64,000 nucleotides of DNA, taken from the NCBI GenBank assembly GCA_965248195.1, contig CBDFIQ010000001.1:1376001-1440000 (forward strand), read 5' to 3'. The notes beneath the pieces were generated by a model that worked only from the letters and a program-made list of their open reading frames with translations, made no database searches and had not been told where the DNA came from. The DNA is from Longimicrobiales bacterium. Lineage in GTDB: Bacteria > Gemmatimonadota > Gemmatimonadetes > Longimicrobiales > Gaopeijiaceae. The position numbers and the translations under genes were made by a program. Shown piece after piece: positions 5,394 through 17,632 of the stretch. Numbering within the stretch: the first letter of the stretch is position 1; each line of letters opens with the position of its first letter.

Positions 5394-6764
5394 ATGATGC
5401 CTACGGGCACAGGGGTGGTAATGATGCCTACGGCCACCCAGCTGATAATGACGGGGGTGGCTTTTCTGGCGACGATGGGACCGGCTCCTGCACGGGGAGC
5501 AGAGGCACCCGAGCTGGCGCCGGTCGTGCTCCAGGCAGATCCGGCGGACGATCTCTACCGTTCCGCACGGCGAGCCATCAACAATCGTGAGTTCCGTGAA
5601 GCGGCCCGGGTGTTCAATCGCCTGCGCCGCGAGCACCGGGCTTCGGTGTATGTGGGCGACTCGTACTACTGGGAGGCCTTCTCGCTCTTCCGGACCGGCG
5701 GCAATGACCGCATGGAGCGTGCGCTCGAGTTGCTCGGCACGCAGGCAGAGGATTTCGCGAACGCGTCCACGACCCCCGATGTGCCCTCACTCCGAGTCCA
5801 GATAGAGGGGGCGCTGGCCCAACTGGGAAACCCCGATGCCGGGCGCAGAGTCGCGGAGCAGGCCTCCCAGTCCTGCGAGTCCGAGGATCAGGAGCTCAGG
5901 ACCATGGCGCTGAGCGCGCTTCTCAACATGAACGCGGAGCGGGCAGTGCCGATCCTGAGGGAAGTGCTGGAGAGCCGGGATGAATGCTCGATCGAGCTGC
6001 GCCGCCAGGCCGTGTTCCTGGTCTCGCAGCACATGACCGACGAGACGGTGGACATCCTGCTGGACCTCGCTCACCGGAACCCGGATCCCGACCGCGAGGT
6101 GCGCGAGCAGGCAGTCTTCTGGCTCTCCCAGGTGGATTCGCCGGAGGCCGTCGACGCCCTCGAGGACATTCTCAGGACGTCCGACGATTCCGAGCTTCAG
6201 GAAAAGGCCATCTTCGCGCTCTCGCAGCACTCCGGCGCGCGCTCCACGGACATCCTCAAGGAGTACGCGGAGCGGACGGACGCCCCGCAGGAGCTGAGGG
6301 AGAACGCCATCTTCTGGCTCGGCCAGAGCCCGGGTGGAGGGGAGTATCTCATGGAGCTGTACTCCAGCGTGGATACGGACGCCCTGAAGGAGAGGATCAT
6401 CTTCGGGGTGTCCCAGTCAGGCACGAGGGCCGATGGGGATTGGCTGCTCGAGCGTGCCCTCGACGAGTCGGAGTCGATCGACATCCGCAAGAACGCCCTT
6501 TTCTGGGCGGGCCAGATGGGCATGGACGTGAGCATGCTCGCGGACTTGTACCTGAGCGTCGAGGACCGCGAGATGAAGGAGCAGATCATCTTCGCGCTCT
6601 CGCAGAGCCCGGACGAGCGCGAGGCGGCAGACCAGCTCATGGAGATCGCCAGGAGTGAGGAGGACTCCGACTTGAAGAGGAACGCGATCTTCTGGCTCGG
6701 CCAGATCGACGACCCGCGCGTGGCGGACTTCCTGCTGGAGGTCATCCGCAACGGGGGGGCATGA
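5394..6764 (+). CDS. Secreted HEAT-repeat protein
   Basis: Repeated RE.AVFWLSQ / EKAIFALSQ / ENAIFWLGQ units; in an operon with ECF and anti-sigma genes. Confidence 0.9.
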   Translation: MMPTGTGVVMMPTATQLIMTGVAFLATMGPAPARGAEAPELAPVVLQADPADDLYRSARRAINNREFREAARVFNRLRREHRASVYVGDSYYWEAFSLFRTGGNDRMERALELLGTQAEDFANASTTPDVPSLRVQIEGALAQLGNPDAGRRVAEQASQSCESEDQELRTMALSALLNMNAERAVPILREVLESRDECSIELRRQAVFLVSQHMTDETVDILLDLAHRNPDPDREVREQAVFWLSQVDSPEAVDALEDILRTSDDSELQEKAIFALSQHSGARSTDILKEYAERTDAPQELRENAIFWLGQSPGGGEYLMELYSSVDTDALKERIIFGVSQSGTRADGDWLLERALDESESIDIRKNALFWAGQMGMDVSMLADLYLSVEDREMKEQIIFALSQSPDEREAADQLMEIARSEEDSDLKRNAIFWLGQIDDPRVADFLLEVIRNGGA

Positions 6765-6799
6765 TGAGACGCGGCCTCGAGTAGGCACCCCCGGCTAGT

Positions 6800-7472
6800 T
6801 CACCGTGCGTCAAGCCATGCTGTGAGCTTTGATCTTTCGCGGACCAAACCATCCTGATTGAAGTGGTGAACACAATAATGCGCCCATGAATCTTCGAACG
6901 CCATTTCCAGATCACCCGTCACCGAGGGTCGTGCCCAGTCCGATTTCTGCGTAGGTAAACTCGAAACTGCCACTAGGGCGTGCCAGCGCAACGTGGAACG
7001 GTTGGCCGTTAAACTCGTTGATTATCGGTCTGCCGCTGCTCGTCATGATGCCCGGTATATCAACCCTTGCGGTTCTCAGTTCCCAGTTCGCTTCGAGACC
7101 TATCGGAAGAAACAATGTCTCGCAGAATTCCGAGCATGTGGACGCGAATACGGAGAAAAAATTGCTCAATGGTTCGCATGCGCCGCCCGAGACGATTGTT
7201 TCAAGTGCAACCCGTTGGGCCTCATCCGCGCGTTCGTCGATAACGATCAGGCGCTTTCCGTTTCCCTCCGCGATTTCCCCGGGCCACTTGTACAGCCCCG
7301 CCCACTTCAGCCCAGGGAGCGGCGTATCGTTGAAATGGCCTTCAGCGAGGTTGCCGACGAAGGCCGACTCACAATAGCCGTAGGTGCTCGCCAAGTTGAA
7401 CTGGCAACCGCAATTCACAGCGCAATTGCAGTTATCATAAGTTTCGCTCTTGAACAGCCATTGATCAGCCAT
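6800..7472 (-). pseudogene. DUF1326 family protein, frameshifted near 6926
   Basis: CNCAVNCGC...C motif, WPGEIAEGNG, DERADEAQR; the C-terminus (SVTGDLEMAFEDSWAHY...) continues in another frame after an extra C. Confidence 0.7.
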
Positions 7473-7749
7473 CTCGCAGATCTCCTCTAAGCCGTCATTT
7501 TGGGTAGGGTCAAGAGGATATGGTGGGACGTAACTGCTGTCCAGGACGACTTCCGTGGAGACCTGGGCGCGCTCCGGAATCAGACTGCGTTCAACATCCG
7601 AGAGCGGGCCGGTAGGCGCGAGCAGAAGCCCAGAATCCGGAGGAGGGCTTTCGGCCGTCGCCCTCATCCTATCTCTTGATGGCACTCGGTCGAGGCTGCA
7701 TTTCAGGCCGGGAGCTACAACTGGGAGGTCGCCGCAAGTGGGGTGGTGC

Positions 7750-10035
7750 ATGAGACGTCGCGGATATCTCGCCGGTTGGACTGCCACAGTCCTCCTTTCT
7801 CCGGCTGTTGCGAGCGCTCAGTCGATCGAAATCCACGGTCCGCCGGCCCCCACGGGCCGAGAGGTCGTCAGCTGGGACGCCGAGGGAAGAGCCACGGTGC
7901 GGGCGACCCGCGCACTGGTGCCCATGTCGATCGACGGGGTTCTGGACGAGCCCTTCTACCGCTCGACCGCCTCGATACCGAACCTCAAGCAGAGTCTGCC
8001 GACGCCCGGCGCGGAGCCGGCGGAGCGCACGGAGACGTGGATCGGATTCGACGACAACAACATCTATGTCGCCGCACGCCTCTGGGACTCAGCACCGGAG
8101 ACCGAGTGGACCGCGAACGAGATGCGGCGCGATGCGAGCACCATCCGGACGAACGACAACTTCGGAGTGTTCCTCGACACCTATTACGACCGTCGCAACT
8201 CGATCGGGCTCTACGTGACCCCGGTGGGCGGCTTCACAGACCTGCAGATGACGAACGAGGGCAGCCCCAATTTCGACTGGAACGCCGTCTGGGACATCCG
8301 CACGGGTCGCTTCGATGGTGGCTGGACCGTGGAAATCGCGATCCCCTTCAAGTCGCTTCGTTATCGAGCCATCCGAGAGCAGGTCTGGGGTTTGCAACTG
8401 CGGCGCTTCCACGTGCGCAACAACGAATGGAGTCACCTCACGACGCTTCCGTTGTCCGTCACGGGAAACGGCCCTTCGGCCATCTTGCGGATGTCGATGT
8501 ATGGAACGCTCGTCGGTGTCGAGGCGCCGGGGGCCAGCATGAATCTCGAAGTGAAGCCCTACGTGGTCTCCGGGCTCCAGACGGATCGGACCGCCAATCC
8601 CGTCGTGGACAACGAGACCCACGCCAGGGCGGGCCTGGACGTCAAGTACGGGATCACGGAGAATCTCACCGCCGATCTCACCTTCAACACCGACTTCGCG
8701 CAGGTCGAGGTGGACGAGCAGCAGGTCAACTTGACGCGCTTCAGCCTCTTCTTTCCCGAAAAAAGGGAGTTCTTCCTCGAGAGCCGGGGGAACTTCGAGT
8801 TCGGGAGGGGCGGGAGCAGGGGCGGCTTCGGTGGAGGCGGTGCTCCGACATTGTTCTACAGCCGACGGATCGGGCTCCAGAGTGGCCGGCTCATCCCGAT
8901 CATCGCCGGGGGGCGCGTGACGGGGAAGGTCGGCGCGTTCGACATTGGGCTGGTCAGCTTACAGACCGACGACGAGCCGAACGTGAGCGCCGAGTCGACG
9001 AACTTCAGCGTGGTGAGAGTTCGCCGCGATGTGTTCGCCCGCAGCAGCATCGGGGTCCTCTTCGGCAACCGGTCCGCCTCGCTGGTCTCCAGCGGCGCGA
9101 ACCAGACCTACGGCGCGGACGCCTCGTTCTCATTCCTTCAGGACGCTTATCTATCGGGGTACTACGCCGGGACCGCCACGGAAGGCCTCAACGGGCACGA
9201 CCAAAGCTACCGGGCGCAAATGAGCTATGACGGTGATCTCTGGGGGGCGCGGCTCGACCATCTGCTGGTGGGTGACGACTTCAATCCGGAGATCGGGTTC
9301 GTGCGACGTGGCGGGTTCCGGCAGTCCGCTGCCTCCGCCTACTGGAGTCCCCGTCCCGGGGTCCGTTGGATACGGCAGCTCAGCTTCTCGGGGAGCTTCG
9401 ACTATTTCGAGAATGATCGGGCCGGGTTCGTGGAGAGCCGCAATGGAGGCGGGCACTTCAGCATCGAGCTCGAGAACAGTGACCGGTTCTTCGCGGGCGT
9501 ATCCGACAGGTACGAGAACCTCCCGGTGGCTACCGGGATTTCTGGCGCCACGATCCCCGCCGGCCGGTACTCGTTCCGTGACGTTCAGGTGGGCTACACC
9601 TTCGGCTCGCAGCGACGAATTTCTGCCGGGCTATCGGTGCGCCGGGGCACGTTCTACACGGGCGAGATCACGTCGGTTAGCCTGAGTCGCGGTAGGATCG
9701 AAGTGCTGCCGCAGCTGTCCGTCGAACCAGGTATCACACTCAACTGGCTCGACCTCCCGGATCAGCAGACGTTCGCCGGCGAGTTCAATCAGCACGTGGT
9801 CACGACGCGCATCACGTATAGTTTGACGCCCCGCACCTTCTTGAGCGGCCTCGTGCAGTACAATTCGCGGGGCGACCTGCTCAGCGGCAACTTCCGTCTG
9901 CGCTGGGAGTGGGCTCCCGGCAGCGAGCTCTTCCTGGTCTACACGGAGGAGCGCTTCACGGAGACCCTCGACCGATGGGGGGACTTGGAGAACCGAGGCC
10001 TGGTGATCAAAGTGAACCGGCTGCTGAGGTTCTGA
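7750..10035 (+). CDS. CBM9-like / DUF5916 outer-membrane protein
   Basis: IDGVLDE, DWNAVW...GGWTVEIAIPFKSLRY, NTDFAQVEVDEQQVNLTRFSLFFPEKREFFLE; ends in Phe. Confidence 0.88.
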   Translation: MRRRGYLAGWTATVLLSPAVASAQSIEIHGPPAPTGREVVSWDAEGRATVRATRALVPMSIDGVLDEPFYRSTASIPNLKQSLPTPGAEPAERTETWIGFDDNNIYVAARLWDSAPETEWTANEMRRDASTIRTNDNFGVFLDTYYDRRNSIGLYVTPVGGFTDLQMTNEGSPNFDWNAVWDIRTGRFDGGWTVEIAIPFKSLRYRAIREQVWGLQLRRFHVRNNEWSHLTTLPLSVTGNGPSAILRMSMYGTLVGVEAPGASMNLEVKPYVVSGLQTDRTANPVVDNETHARAGLDVKYGITENLTADLTFNTDFAQVEVDEQQVNLTRFSLFFPEKREFFLESRGNFEFGRGGSRGGFGGGGAPTLFYSRRIGLQSGRLIPIIAGGRVTGKVGAFDIGLVSLQTDDEPNVSAESTNFSVVRVRRDVFARSSIGVLFGNRSASLVSSGANQTYGADASFSFLQDAYLSGYYAGTATEGLNGHDQSYRAQMSYDGDLWGARLDHLLVGDDFNPEIGFVRRGGFRQSAASAYWSPRPGVRWIRQLSFSGSFDYFENDRAGFVESRNGGGHFSIELENSDRFFAGVSDRYENLPVATGISGATIPAGRYSFRDVQVGYTFGSQRRISAGLSVRRGTFYTGEITSVSLSRGRIEVLPQLSVEPGITLNWLDLPDQQTFAGEFNQHVVTTRITYSLTPRTFLSGLVQYNSRGDLLSGNFRLRWEWAPGSELFLVYTEERFTETLDRWGDLENRGLVIKVNRLLRF

Positions 10036-10115
10036 CTGAGGCTTCTTCAGCCCGTCTCACCAGGGACTGGCCCGCGCCATTGCTGTTGCAGTGTGGCGAC
10101 TGGAGCCGCCCCGCA

Positions 10116-10215
10116 GCTTCATCCACGCCCCCCACGAGGGGGGGGCGACCAATACGAGCAACAAGGCCATCACCAAGGCACCGTTTCAATCCACGCCCCC
10201 CACTAGGGGGGCGAC
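10116..10215 (-). CRISPR. Type I-C mini-array: repeat (10183-10215), 33-nt spacer (10150-10182), degenerate repeat (10116-10149)
   Basis: Minus-strand repeat GTCGCCCCCCTAGTGGGGGGCGTGGATTGAAAC (I-C type hairpin, ATTGAAAC end); spacer GGTGCCTTGGTGATGGCCTTGTTGCTCGTATTG; second repeat GTCGCCCCCCCCTCGTGGGGGGCGTGGATGAAGC; 14 bp downstream of the cas7 stop. Confidence 0.93.
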
Positions 10216-10229
10216 TACTGCGTACACGC

Positions 10230-11084
10230 CTACTTCTCCAGCACCGTAACCCCATCAGGAATCCGGCTACCGTCCAGACTCACGTCGTAGTCGGCGTAGG
10301 ACCGAGGCACGTCAACGCCCTCCCGCTTCTGGATGATCAAGGCCTCGAACAGCTGGTGGGACGGCGCATTACCCAACGCGTCATCGTGCTCGAACACGAG
10401 GAGACGCCATTTGGCCATACTGCCTGGTGGACGGGCAGCCGACTGATCGAACTGGAACGCTCTATCGAGGGCCTGCCAGACCAGCTCGAGGTCCTCCTCG
10501 TCAAACCCCGTCTGATCCGCCAGGAAAGGATTCACGAAGCCGTGCGCCCGGTAGATGGCGTAAGGTACCGTGAACTTGCGGCCCATCGTCCGCTCCTTCT
10601 CCAAGTCCTTCACATTCGTCACGGAGCTACGCGTGATCGCATGCTCACTAGTTACGATCGGGTCGATCGACCGGGCGAAGGAAAGCTGAACCGGCCCACG
10701 GACCTGCCCACAGTTCACCTCAGTGCTCATCACTGCGCCAAACGTGCGGATGTCAAAGAAGTTGTGGCACATGAAGTCGGTGAGTGCCTGCGCCTTCTTC
10801 TGGTCCTTGGGGAGTCTCCTGGAGACCGGCTTCTCCCCAACGTGTTCGTATGCACGCTCATGGGTGTTGTTGAGCACGGCCTTGTCGGTGAAGTAGATCT
10901 CATGCCGCGGCTCGCTCGTTTTCGTGAGCGCCACGAAGTTACGAATCTTCCGCTTGAGGCAAACGTCGGTCACCAGTCCCTGCCCGGTCTCCGCGTCGAT
11001 GCGGGGGAGGTTCCCGGCATCGGGGTCCCCATTGGGGTTGGCATCGGTTACGTCGAACACGAAAATGAAGTCGTAGCGCTTCAT
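10230..11084 (-). CDS. cas7c: Type I-C Cascade backbone Cas7c/Csd2
   Basis: NPNGDPDAGNLPRID, TDVCLKRKIRN, FFDIRTFGAV, GQVRGPVQ, RTMGRK motifs. Confidence 0.97.
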   Translation of the reverse strand: MKRYDFIFVFDVTDANPNGDPDAGNLPRIDAETGQGLVTDVCLKRKIRNFVALTKTSEPRHEIYFTDKAVLNNTHERAYEHVGEKPVSRRLPKDQKKAQALTDFMCHNFFDIRTFGAVMSTEVNCGQVRGPVQLSFARSIDPIVTSEHAITRSSVTNVKDLEKERTMGRKFTVPYAIYRAHGFVNPFLADQTGFDEEDLELVWQALDRAFQFDQSAARPPGSMAKWRLLVFEHDDALGNAPSHQLFEALIIQKREGVDVPRSYADYDVSLDGSRIPDGVTVLEK

Positions 11085-12877
11085 GCGGCTGAGTTTGCTT
11101 CCGAGTTTTCGTTGCTCCTTCGCTTTGTGTAGAGAGCTCTCGTCTGGTGGTAGTACCCGAGGGCAAACAGGCCCTGTTCGTTGAGATTGAAATGAGCCGG
11201 AAAGCCATCGAGAGGATCGAGCACTTCCTGAAGGAGTCGCTCTCGGTTTGTTCGATGACCCCCATCCAGCTTCGCTAGATGGTGCTGGTAGGTGCGTAGC
11301 AAACGTGGGAAGACCGTACGGGGCATCGCCGCCGCCGAGCTGTAATAGCTGCCTCGGATCGTGTTGTTCAGCTTTCGGCCCAGGGCGTCCTTTTGAGTCT
11401 TCTCGATGGCCGCGAACGCTCGACCGAGCCGATACGCCGGGCTGGTGTTCTCCAAGTCCAGGCTCATACTCACCTCCTGGTGTTTGTTGCGGACGAGGTA
11501 CCCCTTGAGGACACAGGCACGGGGGTAATTGATCAAACGGTCGGTGTGGATTCGTCGAACTACGGCGCTGAACAGGCCCTGGGGATACGGGACGCCCTGA
11601 AGCACGGCCCGAAGGAGTGGGCCGGCAAGAACCGGAGGGATCTTCTCTCGGTCCGGCTTGCCCTGCTTGGTCGGACAGGTCTGGTCCAACAACATGCCGT
11701 ACGACGGAAATTCCGGATCCGCCCGTCGTTTTCCAGAAGCGGGCTGGGGCTCTGTGCCGCTATCATCGTGATGCTTCTTGAGGTTGTCGAGGAGATCGCG
11801 CACTGTACCCTGATGAAAGGACCGCACCGATATGCGAGCCGCATTCGGTGCGAGTCCCAACAGATAAAAGCCGGTTCTATCGGGGTCCTCATCGAGGGCT
11901 CCGTACCCACGTCCCGAGCGTAGAGCCCTCAAGAACATCTCGAACCTCGACTTCATGGCCTCGTCCTGAACGTCGCCGCCACTCGAACCGCGGCGGAGGT
12001 ATTGCGCGAGGCAATCCTCGACGGCACTCGGCTTGTCCGTCCAGAACACCACCGTGGTGGCTCCGAGTTGGATGCGGTGCTTGTCCCGCATCGGGCCTTC
12101 GAGAAGGGCGTTGAGGCCCGTGGCATACCGGAAAGCAGCTGATTCGGAGACGGGTGCGTTGTGGCTCTGCGTTTTGCCGAAGGACTCGTAAGCCCCTTCG
12201 TTGAACGAGACGAGGGTGGCGCCTGCGGACTGTGCGCCCGCTACGCCCTTGATCTTCGGGGAATGCGTCTTGGCCACCGGGCCGTATTCACCGGTAACGA
12301 GGCACTGGGCCTCAAAGTCCTCGGACCTTTCCTTCGTGTGGCTGGCCCACCAGGCTCTTACTTCCGGCACGTCATGGACGTAGCCGAGGTCGCCTTGGAT
12401 CTGGAAAACGCCGAACCCGGTGTTGGTGTGCTCCAGCACCGGAAACTGAGCAACGACATCATGGCCCGCAGCGGGATTCCAGTTGGTCAAGAAAGCACAC
12501 ACCGCAGAAAAAGTCGGCGCGTCGATCTCGGTATTCAGTCGGAGGTGCCGATCCCGAAACCCTTCGAAGGCTCTTAGCGCACGGGCACGCTTCTTGGGAT
12601 CGGCATCGTACCCCAGGAGGTAGGCCGTGTTGTCCCAGAGGAAACCGGGGTTGATTCCCGATCCGGAAGACTTCGCCTGCCCGGGCACGAGGACGCGTTG
12701 GGGGCGGAGCTTGCCCGCTTCGTTCTGCCGCGCGTCCTGAATGTCGAAGAGAGTCCCGTCGGGCCGCAGGACGATCTTGAAAGTGATCTTCTGCACGCTG
12801 TGGCCGAATGGAGGGATTTTGTAAGTGGTATCTTCGCTCAAACGATCATAGAGCGCGACCAGTGACTGTAGGATCAT
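11081..12877 (-). CDS. cas8c: Type I-C Cascade large subunit Cas8c/Csd1
   Basis: MILQSLVALYDRL, FLWDNTAYLLG, CLVTGE, LVSFN, LGLAPNAARISVR; internal MSLD start typical of Cas11c; EQGLFALGYYHQ. Confidence 0.97.
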   Translation of the reverse strand: MILQSLVALYDRLSEDTTYKIPPFGHSVQKITFKIVLRPDGTLFDIQDARQNEAGKLRPQRVLVPGQAKSSGSGINPGFLWDNTAYLLGYDADPKKRARALRAFEGFRDRHLRLNTEIDAPTFSAVCAFLTNWNPAAGHDVVAQFPVLEHTNTGFGVFQIQGDLGYVHDVPEVRAWWASHTKERSEDFEAQCLVTGEYGPVAKTHSPKIKGVAGAQSAGATLVSFNEGAYESFGKTQSHNAPVSESAAFRYATGLNALLEGPMRDKHRIQLGATTVVFWTDKPSAVEDCLAQYLRRGSSGGDVQDEAMKSRFEMFLRALRSGRGYGALDEDPDRTGFYLLGLAPNAARISVRSFHQGTVRDLLDNLKKHHDDSGTEPQPASGKRRADPEFPSYGMLLDQTCPTKQGKPDREKIPPVLAGPLLRAVLQGVPYPQGLFSAVVRRIHTDRLINYPRACVLKGYLVRNKHQEVSMSLDLENTSPAYRLGRAFAAIEKTQKDALGRKLNNTIRGSYYSSAAAMPRTVFPRLLRTYQHHLAKLDGGHRTNRERLLQEVLDPLDGFPAHFNLNEQGLFALGYYHQTRALYTKRRSNENSEANSAA

Positions 12878-12880
12878 GGC

Positions 12881-13597
12881 TCAGGCCCTGGCGCTCTCGA
12901 GCGCCGGGACGTCGAGCACACCGTCCTGCAATATCGCTCGGAAAAATCGCGGCTGAGCTGTCACCCGCCGTCCCTGACTGGACTCGATGACGGCACCTTT
13001 TGGATCCGGAATGAAAAGGTGATCGTGGAACAGGAACCCCAGATCCTTTGCGCCCCTCAACTCCGTGGGACACCCAGGAAACGAATCAAGGAGCTCAAAG
13101 CTCGCAGGGAACTCCCTGCACCCCAGGTAGGGGTGATGGAAGTACTGTCCCTTCCTGCCACGTCGCTTGAAGGTGTCCAGGTGCTTGGCCTCGGGGTTCG
13201 TTGTCCCAGCCTCCCCCTTGTCCGTCAGCTCCACGTGTGCCTGGATTCCGTAGGACACGTCCCGAAGTAGCAGGGCGGCTCTCTGCTGGCGGTGTTCGTC
13301 AACGGCCATGCCCAATCGCCCAGCACCAGCTTTCATTGCCGCCTCGACGCCAGACTTGCCCCGCATGGGGATCTTCGCGTCGATCTCGTTTCGCCGAATC
13401 TGCGTGCGCCGGATGGGAGCCAACACATGAATCCGGTCAACGACCCACCGCATTTCCGGTTTCCAGTAGATCGCCTCGAGAATGCCACGTGCCGCGCTGG
13501 GGGTCAGGATGTCGTAGGAAACCCGCTCCACTTTCATTTCAGGGCGGTTGAACGAAGCCAGATCCCCCCAAACCCTCAATCGCACGCCATAGGCCAT
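12881..13597 (-). CDS. cas5c: Type I-C Cas5c (Cas5d) pre-crRNA endoribonuclease
   Basis: VWGDLASFNRPEMKVERVSYDILTPSAARGILEAIYWKP, AKH, PYLGCREF; start at 13597 or 13609. Confidence 0.97.
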   Translation of the reverse strand: MAYGVRLRVWGDLASFNRPEMKVERVSYDILTPSAARGILEAIYWKPEMRWVVDRIHVLAPIRRTQIRRNEIDAKIPMRGKSGVEAAMKAGAGRLGMAVDEHRQQRAALLLRDVSYGIQAHVELTDKGEAGTTNPEAKHLDTFKRRGRKGQYFHHPYLGCREFPASFELLDSFPGCPTELRGAKDLGFLFHDHLFIPDPKGAVIESSQGRRVTAQPRFFRAILQDGVLDVPALESARA

Positions 13598-13707
13598 ACT
13601 GGACCCCATTCCCTCATCATCCCCACCACCCCGTCGTCACATGGTCGCCCGCACGTGGTCTCCTCCCGTCGCCGCGGTGGGGCCGCTTACGAGGGGATAC
13701 CTACTAA

Positions 13708-13734
13708 GACGTAGGGAAGGACGGGAAAGTTGCA
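13708..13734 (-). promoter_or_regulatory. Putative ECF-type promoter TGCAAC-N17-CGTC upstream of cas5c, overlapped by palindrome CCTAC-N6-GTAGG (13700-13715)
   Basis: Minus strand reads cTGCAACtttcccgtccttccctaCGTCttag; same boxes and spacing as 3968-3994. Confidence 0.55.
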
Positions 13735-13897
13735 GGAACGGGTCGAGGAGGGGCGGCTGCGGCGCGCCCGGCTAGAGGATGCTAGTCCCTCAGCTTAGTG
13801 CGGGAGCAGGCGGGATCGGGGACCTAGAGGCTCTACTTCACAGGAATTGCTGCAGTCGTGGCCAACAGGTCGTAGAGGATGGACATCTGGCAGTTCA

Positions 13898-15244
13898 TTA
13901 CCCTCTGAACGTAATGGGGACTTCGATCCATACGGCAACCGGCTCGGTTCCGTTCATAGCCGGGGTGAACCGCAAAACGTCCGCGACCCTGAGGGCAGCT
14001 TCGTCCAACTGCGCCCGGCCTGAAGTCCGGGAAACTCTCGCGTCCCCGACCACGCCGTCGTCGGAAATGAAGAACCAAACCCTCACCGTCCCACCGATTC
14101 CGGCATCCCGAAGCGCAGCGGGATACTCCCGCATCAGGGCTGCCTGGACCTCTTCCCGGTTTGTGATCTCCGGCCGGACGGTCATAGGTGTGAACACAGG
14201 ACCCGCCTGGACTGCCGCCGCGTCTCGCGACTCCACCTGAAGTGGCTCGGGGCTTGTCGTGGGCGCCGACTGACTCGCTGGCGGCTCGACCTCGACGATT
14301 GGCGGGTCCGCTTCTCCCGCCACCGGACTCGTCGGGGGGGCCATGGGCGGATCCACAGCACACGAAGCCACCACGAGCAGTGCTGCGAGCAGTGTCAGTC
14401 CGACGGTACGCGTGTACCGGGGGTCGCGAGTGTCGGTCATGGCAAGGATCCTCTGTTCGATCGATGGGATCGGGCGAGCGAAAGCCAGCGCGCTCAACCG
14501 TGAGGCCGTGCCTCGAGCGCCGATCTCAACAAGAAGCCTGGCGTACCGCTTCACGTCCGCCAATCGGTTAAGGACGCGATGGTCACAGTCGATCTCGATG
14601 GCCAGGCGAAGCCGGTGAACCTGCCACCAGAGAGGGAGGTTCCACGGAAGGAGCGTCAGAAGAAGAAGAGAGAGGCCTGCCAGGCGCGTATCGCCCGCGT
14701 TACAGTGCTCCCCTTCGTGCTGGAGCATCAACTCTTGCTCCCGCGGTGGCATGCCAAACGCCCAGCGCGGCATCACGATCACCGATCGGATCCATCCCAC
14801 GACGCCGGGGCCGAGGTCTTCCGAAACCAGAACGTCCCGGCCATGGAGTTCCGACGGCGTCCAAGTGGACCGGTCCGACCGAAGCCGCAGGTGGGCCCGC
14901 AGGAGGACCGCGGCAACCGCAAGAGTCAGCACCACCCAGCCTGCACCGAGCAGCGTGTCGAGGCCAATGCCGGAGGGTGACGCATCCGCCAACCGCGTAA
15001 TGGAGCCGACGACGGGGATCAGAAGAGCGTCGAGTGGAGTGGAGACGACCGTGCCAAGTGGGAGCGCAGAGGCCGGCGGACGTAGGATCGCGACGAGCGT
15101 ATAGCCGAACGACCCGGCCATCGCTCCAGCCCAGATCCAACGCGTGGGAAAAGCGAACACCCGAACGGCGCGTTCGAAGGCCCACGCCGCTAGTCCCAGA
15201 AGAAGGCTCACGCTCATCACATAGACCATCAGGCTCAATAGCAT
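13898..15244 (-). CDS. BlaR1-like M56 peptidase fused to a TonB C-terminal domain
   Basis: TM N-terminus, HEGEH, PWNLPLWW...EIDCD (M56); YPAALRDAGIGGTVRVWFFI...FTPAMNG..PVAVWIEVPITF (TonB_C). Confidence 0.92.
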   Translation of the reverse strand: MLLSLMVYVMSVSLLLGLAAWAFERAVRVFAFPTRWIWAGAMAGSFGYTLVAILRPPASALPLGTVVSTPLDALLIPVVGSITRLADASPSGIGLDTLLGAGWVVLTLAVAAVLLRAHLRLRSDRSTWTPSELHGRDVLVSEDLGPGVVGWIRSVIVMPRWAFGMPPREQELMLQHEGEHCNAGDTRLAGLSLLLLTLLPWNLPLWWQVHRLRLAIEIDCDHRVLNRLADVKRYARLLVEIGARGTASRLSALAFARPIPSIEQRILAMTDTRDPRYTRTVGLTLLAALLVVASCAVDPPMAPPTSPVAGEADPPIVEVEPPASQSAPTTSPEPLQVESRDAAAVQAGPVFTPMTVRPEITNREEVQAALMREYPAALRDAGIGGTVRVWFFISDDGVVGDARVSRTSGRAQLDEAALRVADVLRFTPAMNGTEPVAVWIEVPITFRG

Positions 15245-15633
15245 CAGTCTTCCTCCCCTTCCGAGCCCTCACCCAGACGCTCGTCGACGAGTTGGCGCAG
15301 CCGGTGGAGTTCCCGTTCGTCCATGCCACGGTCGGAAACGAGTTGGACCAGGAGCAACTCTGGCGAGCCCTTGAATACCTTCTTCACGAGCCGCCGTAGC
15401 TCCCGCCGGCCTGCCGCCGTCCAGTCCACGAGAGCGTAGTAACGGTAGGCCCGCCCCTCCGCCTCATGCCGCACATACCCCTTCTCCCTGAGCGTCCTCA
15501 GCACGGAGAGCACCGTCGTGTAGGCGAGGGGATCGCCCAATCGCTCCTGGACCTCTGCGACCGTTGCGGAGTCCAGATCCCAGAGGATGGACATCACGTC
15601 CAGTTCGCGGGGTGTGAAGGTGTCCGGCGGCAT
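15244..15633 (-). CDS. BlaI/MecI/CopY family repressor
   Basis: FTPRELDVMSILW...LAYTTVLSVLRTLREKGYV...GRAYRY. Confidence 0.95.
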   Translation of the reverse strand: MPPDTFTPRELDVMSILWDLDSATVAEVQERLGDPLAYTTVLSVLRTLREKGYVRHEAEGRAYRYYALVDWTAAGRRELRRLVKKVFKGSPELLLVQLVSDRGMDERELHRLRQLVDERLGEGSEGEED

Positions 15634-15646
15634 GATCCTACCCTTG

Positions 15647-15709
15647 TTACGGGAATTCTAGTAGCAACATGGGGATTGCCTCCGTCCCTGTCAACTAGAA
15701 AACCCGTAG
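15647..15709. promoter_or_regulatory. Inverted pair of putative BlaI-family operator boxes
   Basis: TTACGGGAATTCTAGT (15647-15662) versus reverse complement of ACTAGAAAACCCGTAG (15694-15709), 13/16 identical, directly upstream of the repressor. Confidence 0.5.
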
Positions 15710-15738
15710 ATGGATTCTCAACACACATCGATTACCAC

Positions 15739-15870
15739 GCAGAAATCCCCAGCCTCATCGCCGCTGTGGAGACCCACCCGGATGCGCCCTACAGTTCCAT
15801 GATAGAAGTGCTGGATGCGCTCCACTCCGCAAACGCCGAGCGTATCTCGCTCCAGATGCTGGAGAACTAG
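15739..15870 (+). pseudogene. C-terminal fragment of an ExbD/TolR biopolymer transporter
   Basis: LIAAVETHPDAPYSSMIEVLDAL..ANAERISL* resembles the ExbD C-terminus; no N-terminal TM segment. Confidence 0.6.
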
Positions 15871-15967
15871 GGGAGGCGCGATCAGAGGCGGCGGCATTTT
15901 CGAGGCTGAATGCTAGCATCCCCCGCTCGTTTGAAGGAAATCCAGCCGTAACTGCGTACATTCAGGT

Positions 15968-16885
15968 ATGCCTGCCCCTGTTATTTCGGTCTCTCATCTG
16001 GGAAAGAGCTACGGGTCCACCGTTGCCATGGACGATGTATCGCTTGAGATCCACAAGGGTGAGATCTTTGGCCTGATAGGTCCGAACGGCGCGGGGAAGA
16101 CGACTACGATGGAGTGTGTGGAAGGCCTGCGGAAGGCCGACAAAGGCACGATTTCGGTACTGGGCCTCGATCCGCGACGAGACGCCACTGCGCTTCAGCA
16201 TCGGATCGGCGTCCAGCATCAGGAGGCGCAACTCCAGAAGCGGATCAAGGTTTGGGAGGCCGTTGATCTGTGGTCCGCGCTCTACTCGCACGTTGTCGAC
16301 ACCGAAGCACTCCTGGCTCGACTCGGTCTCGAAGCCAAGCGGAACGCCTGGTTCATGACGCTCTCAGGAGGCCAGAAGCAGAGACTTTTTATTGCGTTGG
16401 CCATGATCCACGATCCCGAAGTGCTCTTCCTGGACGAGGTGACCACGGGACTCGATCCGCAGGCTCGTCGCGCTATCTGGGGACTGATCACGGGCATCCG
16501 GGAGCGCGGCAAGACGGTCTTCCTTACCACACACCTGATGGAGGAAGCGGAACGCCTTTGCGACCGCGTGGCGATCATCGACCACGGCCGGTTGGTCGAG
16601 GTCGGGACACCGGCGGACTTGGTCGAGAAGCACTGCCCGGAACGGGGTGTGGTGTTCACGAGCGTCGGGACCGGCGCGGCCGAGTGTTTGGCTGGGGTAC
16701 CTTCAGTTGTATCGGCGGCGAGTGAGGGGCGCACCCACACGCTTCGGGGCGAGGGTGACGACTTCGTGACCGACGTCATCAACTTCATTGCTCGCGAGGG
16801 CATTCGGGTCGAGGGGTTCCGTACAGAGATTCCTACTCTTGAAGACGTTTTCCTGAAGCTCACTGGCCACGGAATCAGGGACTGA
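15968..16885 (+). CDS. ABC-2 type exporter ATP-binding protein
   Basis: GPNGAGKTT, LSGGQKQR, LFLDE, TTHLMEEAE. Confidence 0.95.
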   Translation: MPAPVISVSHLGKSYGSTVAMDDVSLEIHKGEIFGLIGPNGAGKTTTMECVEGLRKADKGTISVLGLDPRRDATALQHRIGVQHQEAQLQKRIKVWEAVDLWSALYSHVVDTEALLARLGLEAKRNAWFMTLSGGQKQRLFIALAMIHDPEVLFLDEVTTGLDPQARRAIWGLITGIRERGKTVFLTTHLMEEAERLCDRVAIIDHGRLVEVGTPADLVEKHCPERGVVFTSVGTGAAECLAGVPSVVSAASEGRTHTLRGEGDDFVTDVINFIAREGIRVEGFRTEIPTLEDVFLKLTGHGIRD

Positions 16886-16888
16886 CCG

Positions 16889-17632
16889 ATGCTGAACGGA
16901 TTCTGGAAGCTGACTTGGGTCGAGACCAAAGTCTTCACGAGGGAGCCGATGGGATTCGTGGTGAGCCTCGCCCTGCCGGTGATCCTCTTCATCCTTCTGG
17001 GGCGGTCCATGAGCTTCGGCCAGCTGGAGACCACCCCCGCGGCTCAGGCTCCGTTCAACCTGCCGATCCTGTTCGCGCTCATCATCGCCCTCCAGGCGGT
17101 AGCTTCGCTCGTCGTGATCATCTCGATCTACAGGGAAGGAGGGATCCTCAAGCGCCTCCGGGCCACGCCGCTTTCCCCCGTGACGATCCTGAGCGCTCAC
17201 GTGTTCGTCAAGCTCGCCTTCACGTTGGTCAGTTTGGGGCTTCTGGTCTTGGCCGGGCGGCAGTTCTTCCCCGGTGCGATGGACGTGCACTTGCCCAGCT
17301 TCACGGCGGCTCTCCTACTGAGCACGCTGAGCATTCTCTCGCTCGGCTTCGTGATTGCCAGTCTCGTTCCCACGGCTCGGTTTGCCCGGCCGATCGTTGC
17401 GGGATTCCTTTATCCGATGATCGCGTTGTCGGGTCTGTTCTTTCCCGTCGAACGGCTCCCGTCCCCGCTTCAGGTCGTCGCGCAGGGGCTCCCCACCACA
17501 CACGCCGTCTCGCTCATGCAGGGGATCTGGGACGGCTCGGGTTGGGGTGCGCACTGGGGGAGCGTGGTGGGGTTGATTCTCGTGTTCGGGGTTTGCACCG
17601 GGCTTTCGACGAAGGTCTTTCGTTGGGAGTGA
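16889..17632 (+). CDS. ABC-2 type exporter permease
   Basis: Multiple TM segments; YREGGILKRLRATP; SGLFFPVERLP; ends FRWE. Confidence 0.92.
   Translation: MLNGFWKLTWVETKVFTREPMGFVVSLALPVILFILLGRSMSFGQLETTPAAQAPFNLPILFALIIALQAVASLVVIISIYREGGILKRLRATPLSPVTILSAHVFVKLAFTLVSLGLLVLAGRQFFPGAMDVHLPSFTAALLLSTLSILSLGFVIASLVPTARFARPIVAGFLYPMIALSGLFFPVERLPSPLQVVAQGLPTTHAVSLMQGIWDGSGWGAHWGSVVGLILVFGVCTGLSTKVFRWE

Follow-up and report, generated by a model that had tools for sequence, protein, structure and literature searches.

The window, meaning the whole stretch of 64,000 nucleotides that was analysed, carries on its minus strand the genes cas5c, cas8c (with an internal cas11 start) and cas7c, followed by a mini-array with a single spacer. 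The cas operon consists of these three open reading frames only, and its features were delimited as follows.

13734..13616, minus strand: promoter-like element and 5' leader upstream of cas5c, with TGCAAC (13734-13729), 17 nt, and CGTC (13711-13708)
13609..12881, minus strand: cas5c, predicted pre-crRNA endonuclease subunit (PF09704, E 7e-39)
12877..11081, minus strand: cas8c (Csd1), large subunit (PF09709, E 3e-164, profile positions 1-559 of 559)
11467..11081, minus strand: predicted internal cas11c frame, whose ATG at 11467 is Met471 of Cas8c, with AGGAGGTG at 11478-11471
11084..10230, minus strand: cas7c (Csd2), backbone subunit (PF05107, E 5e-99)
10215->10183, minus strand: CRISPR repeat 1, 33 nt, a canonical I-C repeat with 3' end ATTGAAAC; predicted source of the 5' handle
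10182->10150, minus strand: single spacer (guide), 33 nt
10149->10116, minus strand: repeat 2, degenerate, its stem run longer by two C and its 3' end, which reads GATGAAGC, both shortened and altered

A preliminary description of this DNA held that cas5c, cas8c and cas7c were full length and tightly coupled, and the open reading frames and Pfam matches agreed, as did a gap of 3 nt between cas5 and cas8c and an overlap of 4 nt between cas8c and cas7. In line with its sister proteins of 238 aa, cas5c is likely to start in truth at position 13597, with an ATG. Its product matched the type I-C Cas5 of Desulfovibrio vulgaris (8dex_A, 'pre-crRNA processing endonuclease', E 1e-64); the tyrosine in AIYWKP and the lysine-histidine pair, both reported at the outset, were present and aligned with AIHWKP and KH of the D. 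vulgaris protein. With these processing motifs intact, Cas5c is predicted to process pre-crRNA without Cas6. The Cas8c product matched type I-C Cas8c chains in the PDB (E 6e-111), and the Cas11 chain 7kha_K aligned to its residues 472-588; the AGGAGGTG ahead of the internal cas11c ATG is a Shine-Dalgarno sequence. Conserved columns were violated at 5 of 118 positions in Cas8c (rank 28 of 56) and at 3 of 100 in Cas7c (rank 25 of 51), and phylogenetic analysis placed Cas8c as the sister of the L009 protein, on a branch of ordinary length. There was neither an excess of changes at conserved columns nor a long branch.

Where cas3 would usually be found, 288 nt separated cas5 from an upstream gene with M56/BlaR1 and TonB_C domains (Pfam), very close to the intergenic region of roughly 290 bp and the BlaR1/TonB gene first described. 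The 300-nt upstream region held no remnant of cas3. Along 119 nt, the element at 13616..13734 shared 86% identity with the sequence just upstream of a DUF5916/CBM9 gene (C1:141118), and nhmmer found no third copy in the genome. A sigma-70 scan of the element found nothing; by its resemblance to the consensus of such promoters, it may be an ECF-sigma-type promoter. Two Pfam scans, the first of 9 hand-chosen ORFs at 5394-16885 (E at most 1e-3) and the second of 18 ORFs in window positions 1-30000 (E at most 1e-5, leaving out a short greedy ORF at 6993-7490), found no transposase, TniQ/TnsABC, DinG or nuclease family near the locus. The initial statement that neither tniQ/tnsABC nor another effector adjoined the locus was therefore upheld, while the 'many decayed neighbours' also mentioned were not seen, 25 long ORFs being tiled across the first 30 kb.

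The array began 14 nt past the cas7 stop codon with no leader between, and the sequence of repeat, spacer and degenerate repeat was as originally reported. Repeat 1 was identical at 31 of 33 positions to the array repeat of L009, the nearest full I-C locus, and provided the sole Rfam match in 9900-14000 (CRISPR-DR9, E 1e-3, 29.4 bits, under the gathering score of 45). This I-C-type hairpin repeat, with its 3' ATTGAAAC, ran in the same orientation as the cas genes. Both repeats folded as hairpins, at -19.5 kcal/mol for repeat 1 and -18.4 kcal/mol for repeat 2. In contigs of the sequencing runs X7 and X8 (below simply X7 and X8), which came from two other studies and were about 98% identical to the locus, repeat 2 was without the two extra bases, was one base longer and read ...GGATTGAAGC; repeat 2 here had gained two indels relative to that form.

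The partners of a complete system were sought throughout the genome (two contigs totalling 4.86 Mb; marker completeness 91.8%). The Cas1 profile PF01867 and the Cas3 profile PF18019 each gave 0 matches, and the Cas3 profile TIGR01587 gave only two helicase matches, which scored 26 and 23 bits where the cut-off is 102. When the genome was searched by tblastn with three I-C Cas3 proteins and with I-C Cas1, Cas2 and Cas4, no match was found. Nor was there a second array genome-wide: the only copies of the repeat were the two at the locus, and other periodic repeats were tandem or LRR-type coding repeats. The view that the locus is self-contained was thus sustained by the absence of cas3, cas1, cas2, cas4 and any other array from the genome, and a Cascade without Cas3 could bind DNA and not cut it.

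Since repeats are hard to assemble, and given the completeness and the two contigs noted above, a long array might have collapsed, or a chimeric join might have removed cas3 and cas1. This we consider scarcely credible, because the structure recurred in other assemblies. A contig of 4058 nt from run X1, produced by an independent assembler, covered 9549-13606 with 0 differences, and X7 and X8 shared the same two junctions and the same single-spacer array. X8 spanned 9273-13286, reaching from the end of the DUF5916 gene across the array, cas7 and cas8c as far as cas5, with 85 substitutions and 27 gap letters (+15, +9, +1 and -2); as all 27 were accounted for, X8 contained no extra spacer units. 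X7 linked BlaR1 (14628) to cas8c (12148), and a cas3 gene would not fit into its 139 surplus letters. Moreover, with their different loops the two repeats would not collapse together. The possibility of misassembly or a collapsed array, raised in the preliminary description, was thereby contradicted and, on this comparison of contigs, the locus is neither a fresh nor a misassembled deletion.

Comparison with related loci indicates that a canonical I-C system gave rise to the locus. In the nearest homologue, with 63% Cas8c identity, cas3 adjoins cas5, and the same holds for 57 of 59 informative related loci. The locus itself was not found in any of the 11 same-genus genomes (0 of 11). Full loci in relatives, together with absence from all 11 congeners, point to a lineage-specific reduction and not to an established clade; a clade of loci lacking cas3, as envisaged beforehand, did not emerge. 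Recent deletion from a complete locus had been named as the contrary case. Its premise was correct, in that the nearest relatives do carry full loci, but those relatives are only 63-76% identical.

Sister strains allowed the fate of the genes after the loss of cas3 to be considered. Among the 40 differences listed in the strain comparison (468 further differences were counted), all eight that fell within cas7 or cas8c were synonymous third-position changes, and the two indels in cas8c were both multiples of 3 and in frame. The sister proteins differed at 3-10 of 238 residues for Cas5, about 2% for Cas8c and 4-9 of 284 for Cas7. Against a neutral expectation of about 4.5% at about 2.1% nucleotide divergence, this would place omega near 0.2, which is rough arithmetic based on the differences as listed, from proteins and contigs that cannot be paired by sister strain. 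Several disrupted copies were also observed. In the Cas5 cluster (22 members), 14 of 15 listed members were full length and one was truncated; in 3 of 9 Cas8c cluster members the last 55 residues or so (the Cas11 part) had been swapped for sequence absent from the host genome; one sister copy of Cas8c had a terminal frameshift; and 1 of 15 listed Cas7 members was fused to foreign sequence. The shared architecture, along with the synonymous and in-frame changes among those listed, argues for selection after the loss of cas3. The locus is probably best seen as a Cascade-only remnant kept by selection as a DNA binder, a reading that we favour at just under an even chance.

The spacer matched SusC-like genes of its own genome at 25-27 of 33 positions; three of these genes had a TTC PAM at the match, and TTC is given as the canonical I-C PAM in the cited portion of PMC5602111. 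Among 1000 shuffled spacers the maximum with TTC was 24, and 0 of 1000 reached 25/33; judged by this comparison, the homology of the spacer to the genus-typical SusC-like TonB receptor family is certain, and its source is the signal-peptide part of that family's coding sequence. The best matches within the genome were 27/33 and 26/33, none being perfect. The candidate target, C2:635280-635312, matched at 26/33 with its first 17 nt perfect and a TTC PAM, and was the only site in the genome to combine a TTC PAM with a seed of at least 11 nt. It corresponds to codons 14-24, which are signal-peptide codons, of a SusC-like TonB-dependent receptor gene that heads a susC/susD pair. Congener orthologues matched the spacer at 27-29/33 with TTC PAMs (29/33 in G006), most of these copies having a seed mismatch at position 3, and the 17-nt seed differed from the consensus of the SusC-like family by about one synonymous base. 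Since the spacer fits the family consensus better than it fits the host gene, the match may reflect origin, not function. No match to the spacer was found in phage and plasmid collections.

The crRNA would have the sense of the mRNA and pair with the template strand, at a site within the coding region; the only sigma-70-like promoter lies about 230 nt upstream of it. Transcription is repressed by Cascade even when Cas3 is missing (PMC4288209; PMC10120712); in type I-E, guides of this orientation were repressive only when they bound close to the footprint of RNA polymerase (PMC4288209). According to the cited part of PMC8501985, CreA guides need no more than nucleotides 1-5 and 7-11 to be paired for repression. 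A mini-array guide of the CreA, CreR or crlRNA type would repress the cas promoter or an adjacent small toxin gene, and the form of the array fits, with two repeats, one degenerate, around one spacer in a cas locus; such elements are described as widespread in the cited passages of PMC10120712 and PMC8501985. Those of types I-B, I-D, I-E, I-F1 and V-A share with this locus the single spacer and the two repeats, one of them degenerate, as well as partial PAM-proximal complementarity to host DNA that Cascade would not cut (PMC8501985; PMC10120712; bioRxiv 10.1101/2023.03.10.532045, in the passages cited). The known ones, as far as these passages describe them, adjoin a complete system, target a promoter in or near the cas locus and have short guides. 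Here, by contrast, the array is the sole one, the guide has its full length of 33 nt and the candidate site falls inside a coding sequence of the other contig. Within C1:1384000-1393000 (window 8000-17000, +/-4.5 kb), no site combined TTC with a seed of at least 7, which contradicts a local regulator, and no complete immune system remains for one to regulate or guard. We hold this role to be very improbable.

An immune role without cutting was also considered: the complex might block or mark DNA from related Gemmatimonadaceae, or recruit an unrelated nuclease or helicase in trans, in the manner of type IV-A. The matches of congener orthologues with TTC PAMs and the apparent selection on the genes are consistent with this, and type IV-A3 silences without a nuclease in the cited part of bioRxiv 10.1101/2023.06.23.546257. 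Like the present locus, type IV-A has a class 1 effector with neither a cutting enzyme nor an adaptation module, and binds or silences; type IV differs, within the scope of the same source, in its own Csf proteins, DinG helicase, plasmid-borne location and multi-spacer arrays, none of which were seen here (Pfam scans). The position 3 seed mismatch of most congener copies weighs against interference, as does the lack of DinG, nuclease or transposition genes among the adjacent ORFs scanned and of any Cas3-like protein in the genome. A single, unchanging spacer directed at a housekeeping-type gene of the chromosome would be poor defence, and we regard such a role as unlikely.

Decay after autoimmunity is a stronger alternative. 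A complete I-C system would have taken its spacer from a SusC-like gene of its own or a close relative's genome; self-targeting would have selected for loss of cas3, later deletions would have removed the adaptation genes, the leader and the other spacers, and the leftover genes would be without a role and in the course of being lost. Stern and colleagues reportedly observed, in 2010, that lost cas genes and degenerate repeats accompany self-targeting spacers. A review says likewise in its cited portion (PMC6990116), and the locus conforms to this classic pattern: the spacer has its homologues in a chromosomal gene family of the genus and no match in the phage and plasmid collections, the genome has lost cas3 together with the adaptation genes, the repeat next to the spacer has degenerated, further than in X7 and X8, sister strains carry independent disruptions and relatives have full loci. 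However, the simplest escape from self-targeting is loss of the spacer, and here the sole spacer was retained. Strains diverged by about 2% share the junctions, yet their listed coding changes were synonymous and their indels in frame, where relaxed genes should show nonsynonymous and frameshift changes; conserved columns and branch length were normal. As the genome has no perfect copy of the spacer, a self-origin also needs later divergence of the target, or gene conversion. We judge decay of this kind a real possibility, some way short of an even chance.

Retention as a DNA binder would imply the following history, in which expression, crRNA processing, binding and any repression are what we infer from the arrangement of the locus. 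A canonical locus, ordered cas3-cas5-cas8c-cas7-cas4-cas1-cas2-array, would have been acquired horizontally by this Gemmatimonadaceae species and would then have lost its leader, the cas3 and adaptation genes and every spacer but one. That the only spacer kept is self-matching is not expected of a random leftover. One transcription unit, probably starting from the host-type promoter/leader copy upstream of cas5c, would read through into the repeat-spacer-repeat, and Cas5c would cut at the base of each repeat hairpin. The one crRNA that results would carry the 33-nt guide between an 11-nt 5' handle derived from repeat 1 and the hairpin of repeat 2. Cascade (Cas5c, Cas8c, Cas11c and Cas7c) would assemble on this single crRNA; without Cas3 it would bind and leave the DNA uncut, and growth of the array would be impossible. 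Most likely the complex is still made, and purifying selection has maintained it for RNA-guided DNA binding; bound at the SusC-like site, it would form a roadblock to transcription, though probably a weak one.

In Myxococcus xanthus, DevT, DevR and DevS of the dev operon are type I-C Cas8c, Cas7 and Cas5 with a developmental role, so that type I-C Cascade proteins have already been credited with non-immune regulation. Unlike the present locus, dev retains a long array alongside the other cas genes, and it is not known to have a defined guide-target pair. Canonical type I-C (D. vulgaris and Bacillus halodurans; PDB 7kha, 8dex) resembles the locus in its Cas5c, Cas8c with internal Cas11c start and Cas7c, and in the 33-nt repeat with a G+C hairpin ending in ATTGAAAC, the 33-nt spacer and the TTC PAM at the best target; it differs in having cas3, cas4, cas1, cas2 and a leader, where here there is one spacer 14 nt from cas7. 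A Cas3-less type I-C system with a Cas8-Cas5 fusion was suggested to 'function as a DNA binder' by Altae-Tran et al. 2023 (PMC10910872, in the cited passage); unlike in that system, as described there, Cas8c and Cas5c are here separate and ordinary proteins. The preliminary description had proposed an operon exapted to make one fixed-guide DNA-binding complex. Its intact parts and the architecture shared among strains speak for this, while the lack of a cas3-less clade, the broken sister copies and the weakly repressing orientation speak against it; on the present comparisons, the system may have been exapted for a non-immune role. The locus may thus be either a natural silencer aimed at one of the cell's own nutrient-receptor genes or a remnant in slow decay.

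Three close-packed minus-strand genes made up the coding part of the locus, each matching its Pfam profile over the full length:

13609..12881, minus strand, cas5c (E = 7e-39)
12877..11081, minus strand, cas8c (E = 3e-164)
11084..10230, minus strand, cas7c (E = 5e-99)

Sister proteins of 238 aa point to the ATG at 13597 as the likely true start of cas5c. Repeat 1 (33 nt, 3' end ATTGAAAC) began 14 nt past the cas7 stop and was followed by a 33-nt spacer and by repeat 2, which had two additional C in the stem run and a changed 3' end; the expected hairpin fold was present in both repeats. The three Pfam matches and the repeat-spacer-repeat reading therefore bore out the preliminary description of Cascade genes with a single-spacer mini-array 14 nt past cas7. 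Repeat 1 was identical at 31 of 33 positions to the array repeat of L009, the nearest full type I-C locus, and gave the sole Rfam match in the cas region (CRISPR-DR9, under the gathering score). The upstream neighbours, on the same strand, were a BlaI repressor and an M56/BlaR1-TonB_C gene, while the downstream neighbour was a convergent DUF5916/CBM9 gene. Cas5c was closely homologous to the solved 'pre-crRNA processing endonuclease' of Desulfovibrio vulgaris (E = 1e-64), and the AIYWKP motif and Lys-His pair, noted earlier as signs of crRNA maturation, aligned to AIHWKP and KH in that protein. The internal small-subunit (Cas11c) start typical of type I-C is intact in cas8c, since the solved Cas11c chain aligned with Cas8c residues 472–588 and AGGAGGTG preceded Met471.

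The remainder of a type I-C system was sought across the genome (4.86 Mb, two contigs, marker completeness 91.8%). The Cas1 (PF01867) and Cas3_HD (PF18019) profiles had no matches genome-wide, and the only matches to cas3_core (TIGR01587) were a pair of generic helicases that scored 26 and 23 bits, below the cut-off of 102. A tblastn search of the genome with three Cas3 and two Cas1 proteins, together with Cas2 and Cas4, all taken from related I-C loci, matched only the cas5 and cas7 of the window. The CRISPR repeat occurred twice in the genome, both times in the mini-array, and a genome scan for 20-mers recurring at 50–90 nt returned solely tandem or leucine-rich-repeat-type coding repeats. 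One 72-nt periodic repeat on the second contig (C2:45446–46321; self-identity 0.57–0.67) was CRISPR-like at first, and was rejected as its unit apparently reads as opposite-strand leucine-rich-repeat coding sequence. Hence the whole-genome search that had been proposed for cas3, cas1, cas2 and other I-C arrays found none by profile, tblastn or repeat scan. No Cas3 remnant was detected by blastx in the 300 nt upstream of cas5 (best E = 0.7). Among the best 120 of 8000 scored candidates for homologues of the L009 Cas3, only one was on a contig equal in length to a sister-strain contig; this was a JGI contig of 7554 nt, whereas the sister contig of that size is from Logan, and the agreement is probably coincidence. 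Transposase, TniQ, DinG and nuclease families were absent by Pfam from nine hand-picked ORFs at 5394–16885 (E <= 1e-3) and from 18 ORFs of window 1–30000 (E <= 1e-5), one short greedy ORF (6993–7490) being left out of these scans, in agreement with the earlier observation that no tniQ/tnsABC or other effector is adjacent.

Cas8c was detected in none of 11 same-genus genomes and in 3 of 60 relatives overall, a count that includes the unpublished G056. Synteny with the congener genomes G005 and G006 was confined to BlaI/BlaR1 (13860–15715). Seventy related loci were gathered, 37 from genome_contigs and 33 from metagenome_contigs. The best Cas8c relative was L009, from a Gemmatimonadota MAG, with 63% identity (Cas5, 75%; Cas7, 76%); no closer Cas8c was found in scans of the two collections, from which records very near the window may be excluded. 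The cas3 gene adjoined cas5 in 33/37 and 24/33 of these loci respectively. Of the 13 loci without it, 11 were cut by a contig end, while L022 and L044 had at least 9 kb of upstream DNA without cas3; the cas3 side was canonical in 57 of 59 informative loci. Both L009 and L018 displayed the order cas3-cas5-cas8c-cas7-cas4-cas1-cas2-array by Pfam (cas4 of L009 by tblastn only). A Cas8c phylogeny (56 rows, near full-length matches only, quick IQ-TREE search) placed the window as sister of L009 with support of 99, and its terminal branch was ordinary (0.39 vs 0.47). Given the full loci in relatives and this position in the tree, the locus is a reduced canonical I-C system and not part of a distinct cas3-less clade. 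The idea that loci with a mini-array and no cas3 might form a clade was thereby contradicted, the sister locus being complete. The nearest relatives do carry full loci, which had been named beforehand as a finding that would point to a recent deletion, but these relatives are distant and 'recent' is not implied.

A second, independent Cascade-only I-C locus was observed in a Magnetococcales MAG (PDZV01000034.1; L044:9273–13150). This comprised cas5-cas8c-cas7, with no cas3, cas4, cas1 or cas2 within 16 kb, and approximately seven repeats directly past the cas7 stop, which retained the 3' handle GCGCGGATTGAAAC and had short spacers; the repeat stems varied, each nonetheless being self-complementary. 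Its Cas8c branch was long (1.16, compared with 0.24 in the sister L030), the MAG also encoded a further Cas3 and additional Cas1 genes, and a BLAST comparison of the array with its own genome produced no convincing self-target. Another partly reduced form, from Persicirhabdus sediminis (L016:6872–14200), had cas3 and the Cascade genes without cas4 or cas1, and kept a 138-nt cas2-like remnant and an array of 6–8 repeats.

Four public sequencing runs containing the stretch were compared over window positions 7000–17000. A 4058-nt contig from X1, which is probably the source sample, covered 9549–13606 with zero differences. A 4037-nt contig from X8, a run of another study, spanned 9273–13286 and differed by 85 substitutions (2.1%); all of the 27 gap letters were explained by gains of 15 and 9 nt in cas8c, a gain of 1 nt at 10120 and a loss of 2 nt at 10138, and therefore this strain has the same single-spacer array and the same neighbour junction. 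In X7, from a third study, a contig running from BlaR1 (14628) to cas8c (12148) was longer by only 139 letters, inserted immediately ahead of the cas5 start, which leaves no space for cas3. Because the X7 and X8 contigs show the same junctions, the reduced architecture is older than the split of lineages approximately 2% apart and is not a fresh deletion. Misassembly or collapse of a longer array was ruled against, since the X1, X7 and X8 contigs reproduced the junctions and X8 the single-spacer array. Repeat 2 in X7 and X8 was nearer to the canonical repeat, lacking the two extra bases and ending ...GGATTGAAGC; the form in the window genome, common to run X4, is the more decayed. A strain-specific insertion in X7 added 1925 letters at 15742/15747, immediately upstream of BlaI. 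Summed contig depth at 7334–7667 and 8670–9003 was 10–400x that of neighbouring bins; these stretches of the DUF5916 gene, the start region included, are common to many paralogues or organisms in the samples, and congeners gave many short, highly similar matches to residues 2–30 of the DUF5916 ORF.

In crRNA sense, the spacer had four matches of 25–27/33 in the genome, three of them with a TTC PAM. Each fell in the codons for the signal peptide of a SusC-like TonB-dependent receptor, the four genes being paralogues; the best match with TTC among 1000 shuffled spacers was 24. TTC is given as the canonical I-C PAM, and 33–37 nt as the length of native I-C spacers, in PMC5602111. The only place in the genome combining TTC with a seed of at least 11 nt was C2:635280–635312, where 26/33 positions matched; nucleotides 1–17 were perfect and mismatches fell at positions 18, 19, 24, 25, 27, 31 and 32. 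This site corresponds to codons 14–24 of a gene whose 1059-aa product has CarboxypepD_reg, Plug and beta-barrel domains, and a SusD-like gene comes after it, the pair occupying C2:635241–640039. Orthologues in other Gemmatimonadaceae had the N-terminus ...FGALVMALLLVV, one orthologous protein agreed with 10/11 spacer-encoded residues, and two copies in congener G006 matched at 29/33 with TTC and a seed mismatch at position 3. The matches in the own genome, in orthologues and in G006 show that the spacer was captured from a genus-typical SusC-like gene family, the source being a gene of its own lineage or of a relative. A known phage or plasmid source was rejected, as there was no exact match in viral_contigs and only chance-level matches in phage and plasmid collections (E >= 0.3). 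The spacer was also absent, at up to 3 mismatches, from 313 other genomes of the family. The host's own target copy is unusual, for it retains the entire seed although its PAM-distal part is off the family consensus. The 90% cluster of the target protein contained no orthologue from a sister strain. Within the window, a SusC-like paralogue starting near 46864 matched the spacer at 25/33 (46885–46917, plus strand), and, having CTG in the PAM place and seed mismatches, is not a predicted target.

Cascade without Cas3 is reported to repress transcription (PMC4288209; PMC10120712), and CreA guides to require pairing at nucleotides 1–5 and 7–11 only (PMC8501985). Because CreA guides require so little pairing, a PAM and 17-nt seed would, by analogy, be ample for binding at the candidate site. 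The crRNA reads in the same sense as the mRNA and would therefore pair with the template strand, and the site is some 230 nt past the single sigma-70-like promoter of the target gene. For type I-E, repression in this orientation is described only close to the polymerase footprint (PMC4288209); by that behaviour, the orientation and distance suggest that any repression may be weak. The target gene leader (C2:635018–635145; L083:5018–5145 in the extracted stretch) included a sigma-70-like promoter and, approximately 75 nt past it and upstream of the start codon, a G+C hairpin then a T-run, which may be an attenuator.

A sigma-70 scan found no such promoter upstream of cas5. An element at 13734–13616 shared 86% identity with the sequence immediately preceding a DUF5916/CBM9 gene at C1:141118, on the contig that carries the window. 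This element of approximately 120 nt had only two copies in the genome (13616–13734 and C1:141009–141130, i.e., L084:1009–1130) and no Rfam match; the similarity started exactly at TGCAAC, with CGTC 17 nt on, and ended just before the start codon. TGCAAC-N17-CGTC resembles ECF-sigma promoters. The element may be an ECF-type promoter with a conserved leader, and the cas operon thus appears to lie behind a host-type promoter and leader. Since 14 nt separate cas7 and repeat 1, the array could be transcribed by read-through only. The RNA-type runs X19–X21 contained 0.07–0.17 of the sequence words of the stretch.

Among 40 listed strain differences (468 further differences accompany them), all 8 in cas7 and cas8c were synonymous and at third positions; synonymous changes made up 5/6 in the DUF5916 gene, 0/3 in BlaR1 and 1/3 in BlaI. 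Both indels within cas genes were multiples of three. Clusters at 90% identity contained 22 Cas5, 9 Cas8c and 17 Cas7 members, and near sisters differed from the window at 3–10/238 residues in Cas5, approximately 2% in Cas8c and 4–9/284 in Cas7, where approximately 4.5% amino-acid differences are expected under neutrality at approximately 2.1% nucleotide divergence. This gives a rough omega near 0.2, from proteins and contigs not paired by strain. This rough omega and the synonymous changes listed in cas7 and cas8c speak for constraint, in the direction of the proposed dN/dS test (<1). Departures from conserved columns (kept in at least 90% of homologues) numbered 4/73 in Cas5 (rank 52 of 63), 5/118 in Cas8c (rank 28 of 56) and 3/100 in Cas7 (rank 25 of 51); the window proteins depart no more than typical homologues.

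Broken copies were also found. In 3/9 Cas8c cluster members, everything past residue ~545 was swapped for sequence encoded nowhere in the window's genome, which destroys the Cas11 part; one Cas8c member had a frameshift at its extreme end, one of 15 listed Cas5 members was truncated and one of 15 listed Cas7 members was fused to foreign sequence. The module has been under constraint, yet some strains can dispense with it. Its anatomy and its descent from a full locus are secure, and for its present state two readings run close. The broken copies agree with a decaying scar of self-targeting, for which a spacer of self origin, the loss of cas3 and a degenerate repeat next to the spacer form a classic pattern, and the target orientation is poor; we regard this as a possible explanation, somewhat short of the one that we tentatively prefer. 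The latter, which we put a little below an even chance, is that the module still functions and is kept by selection as an RNA-guided DNA binder, which would most probably act at the SusC-like gene. It is favoured by constraint persisting past the loss of cas3, by the intact processing and assembly features, and by the self-match of the sole retained spacer, whose loss would be the easiest escape from self-targeting. Repression of that specific SusC-like gene, a narrower claim within this reading, is considered rather unlikely. A local regulator of the CreTA/CreR type was contradicted, as no site with a TTC PAM and a seed of at least 7 nt was found at window positions 8000–17000.

Cascade without Cas3 is in standard use as an engineered means of gene silencing, and the locus may be likened in mode of action to such CRISPRi and to natural crlRNA/CreA guides. 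It differs from a complete type I-C system in having no Cas3 and no adaptation module, and from known regulatory mini-arrays in having no local promoter target and no companion immune system; as far as PMC8501985 and PMC10120712 describe them, the latter act locally within complete systems. According to the 2020 review of Wimmer and Beisel, nuclease-dead CRISPR regulators of natural origin 'have not been reported'; the review calls for screens for that combination (PMC6990116). No later type I example was found in a literature search of main texts outside subscription; one incomplete I-C locus without Cas3 is mentioned as a possible DNA binder (PMC10910872), and silencing is described for type IV-A (bioRxiv 10.1101/2023.06.23.546257).

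In its fullest form, the preferred interpretation would be a natural, chromosomally fixed CRISPRi, in which the nuclease and memory genes were shed and one guide under a host-type promoter tunes a susC/susD uptake operon, under purifying selection across strains; this we consider doubtful. SusC-like outer-membrane receptors are often phage entry points, so that silencing could itself protect. The locus offers a concrete guide-target pair with a defined PAM, seed and gene, and sister strains carry both intact and broken versions. If it is a mere remnant, the locus still records one way in which CRISPR systems decay, with effector genes surviving the loss of the nuclease under apparent constraint; if the regulatory interpretation is true, no earlier case of a catalytically dead type I system regulating a distant chromosomal gene would have been documented.
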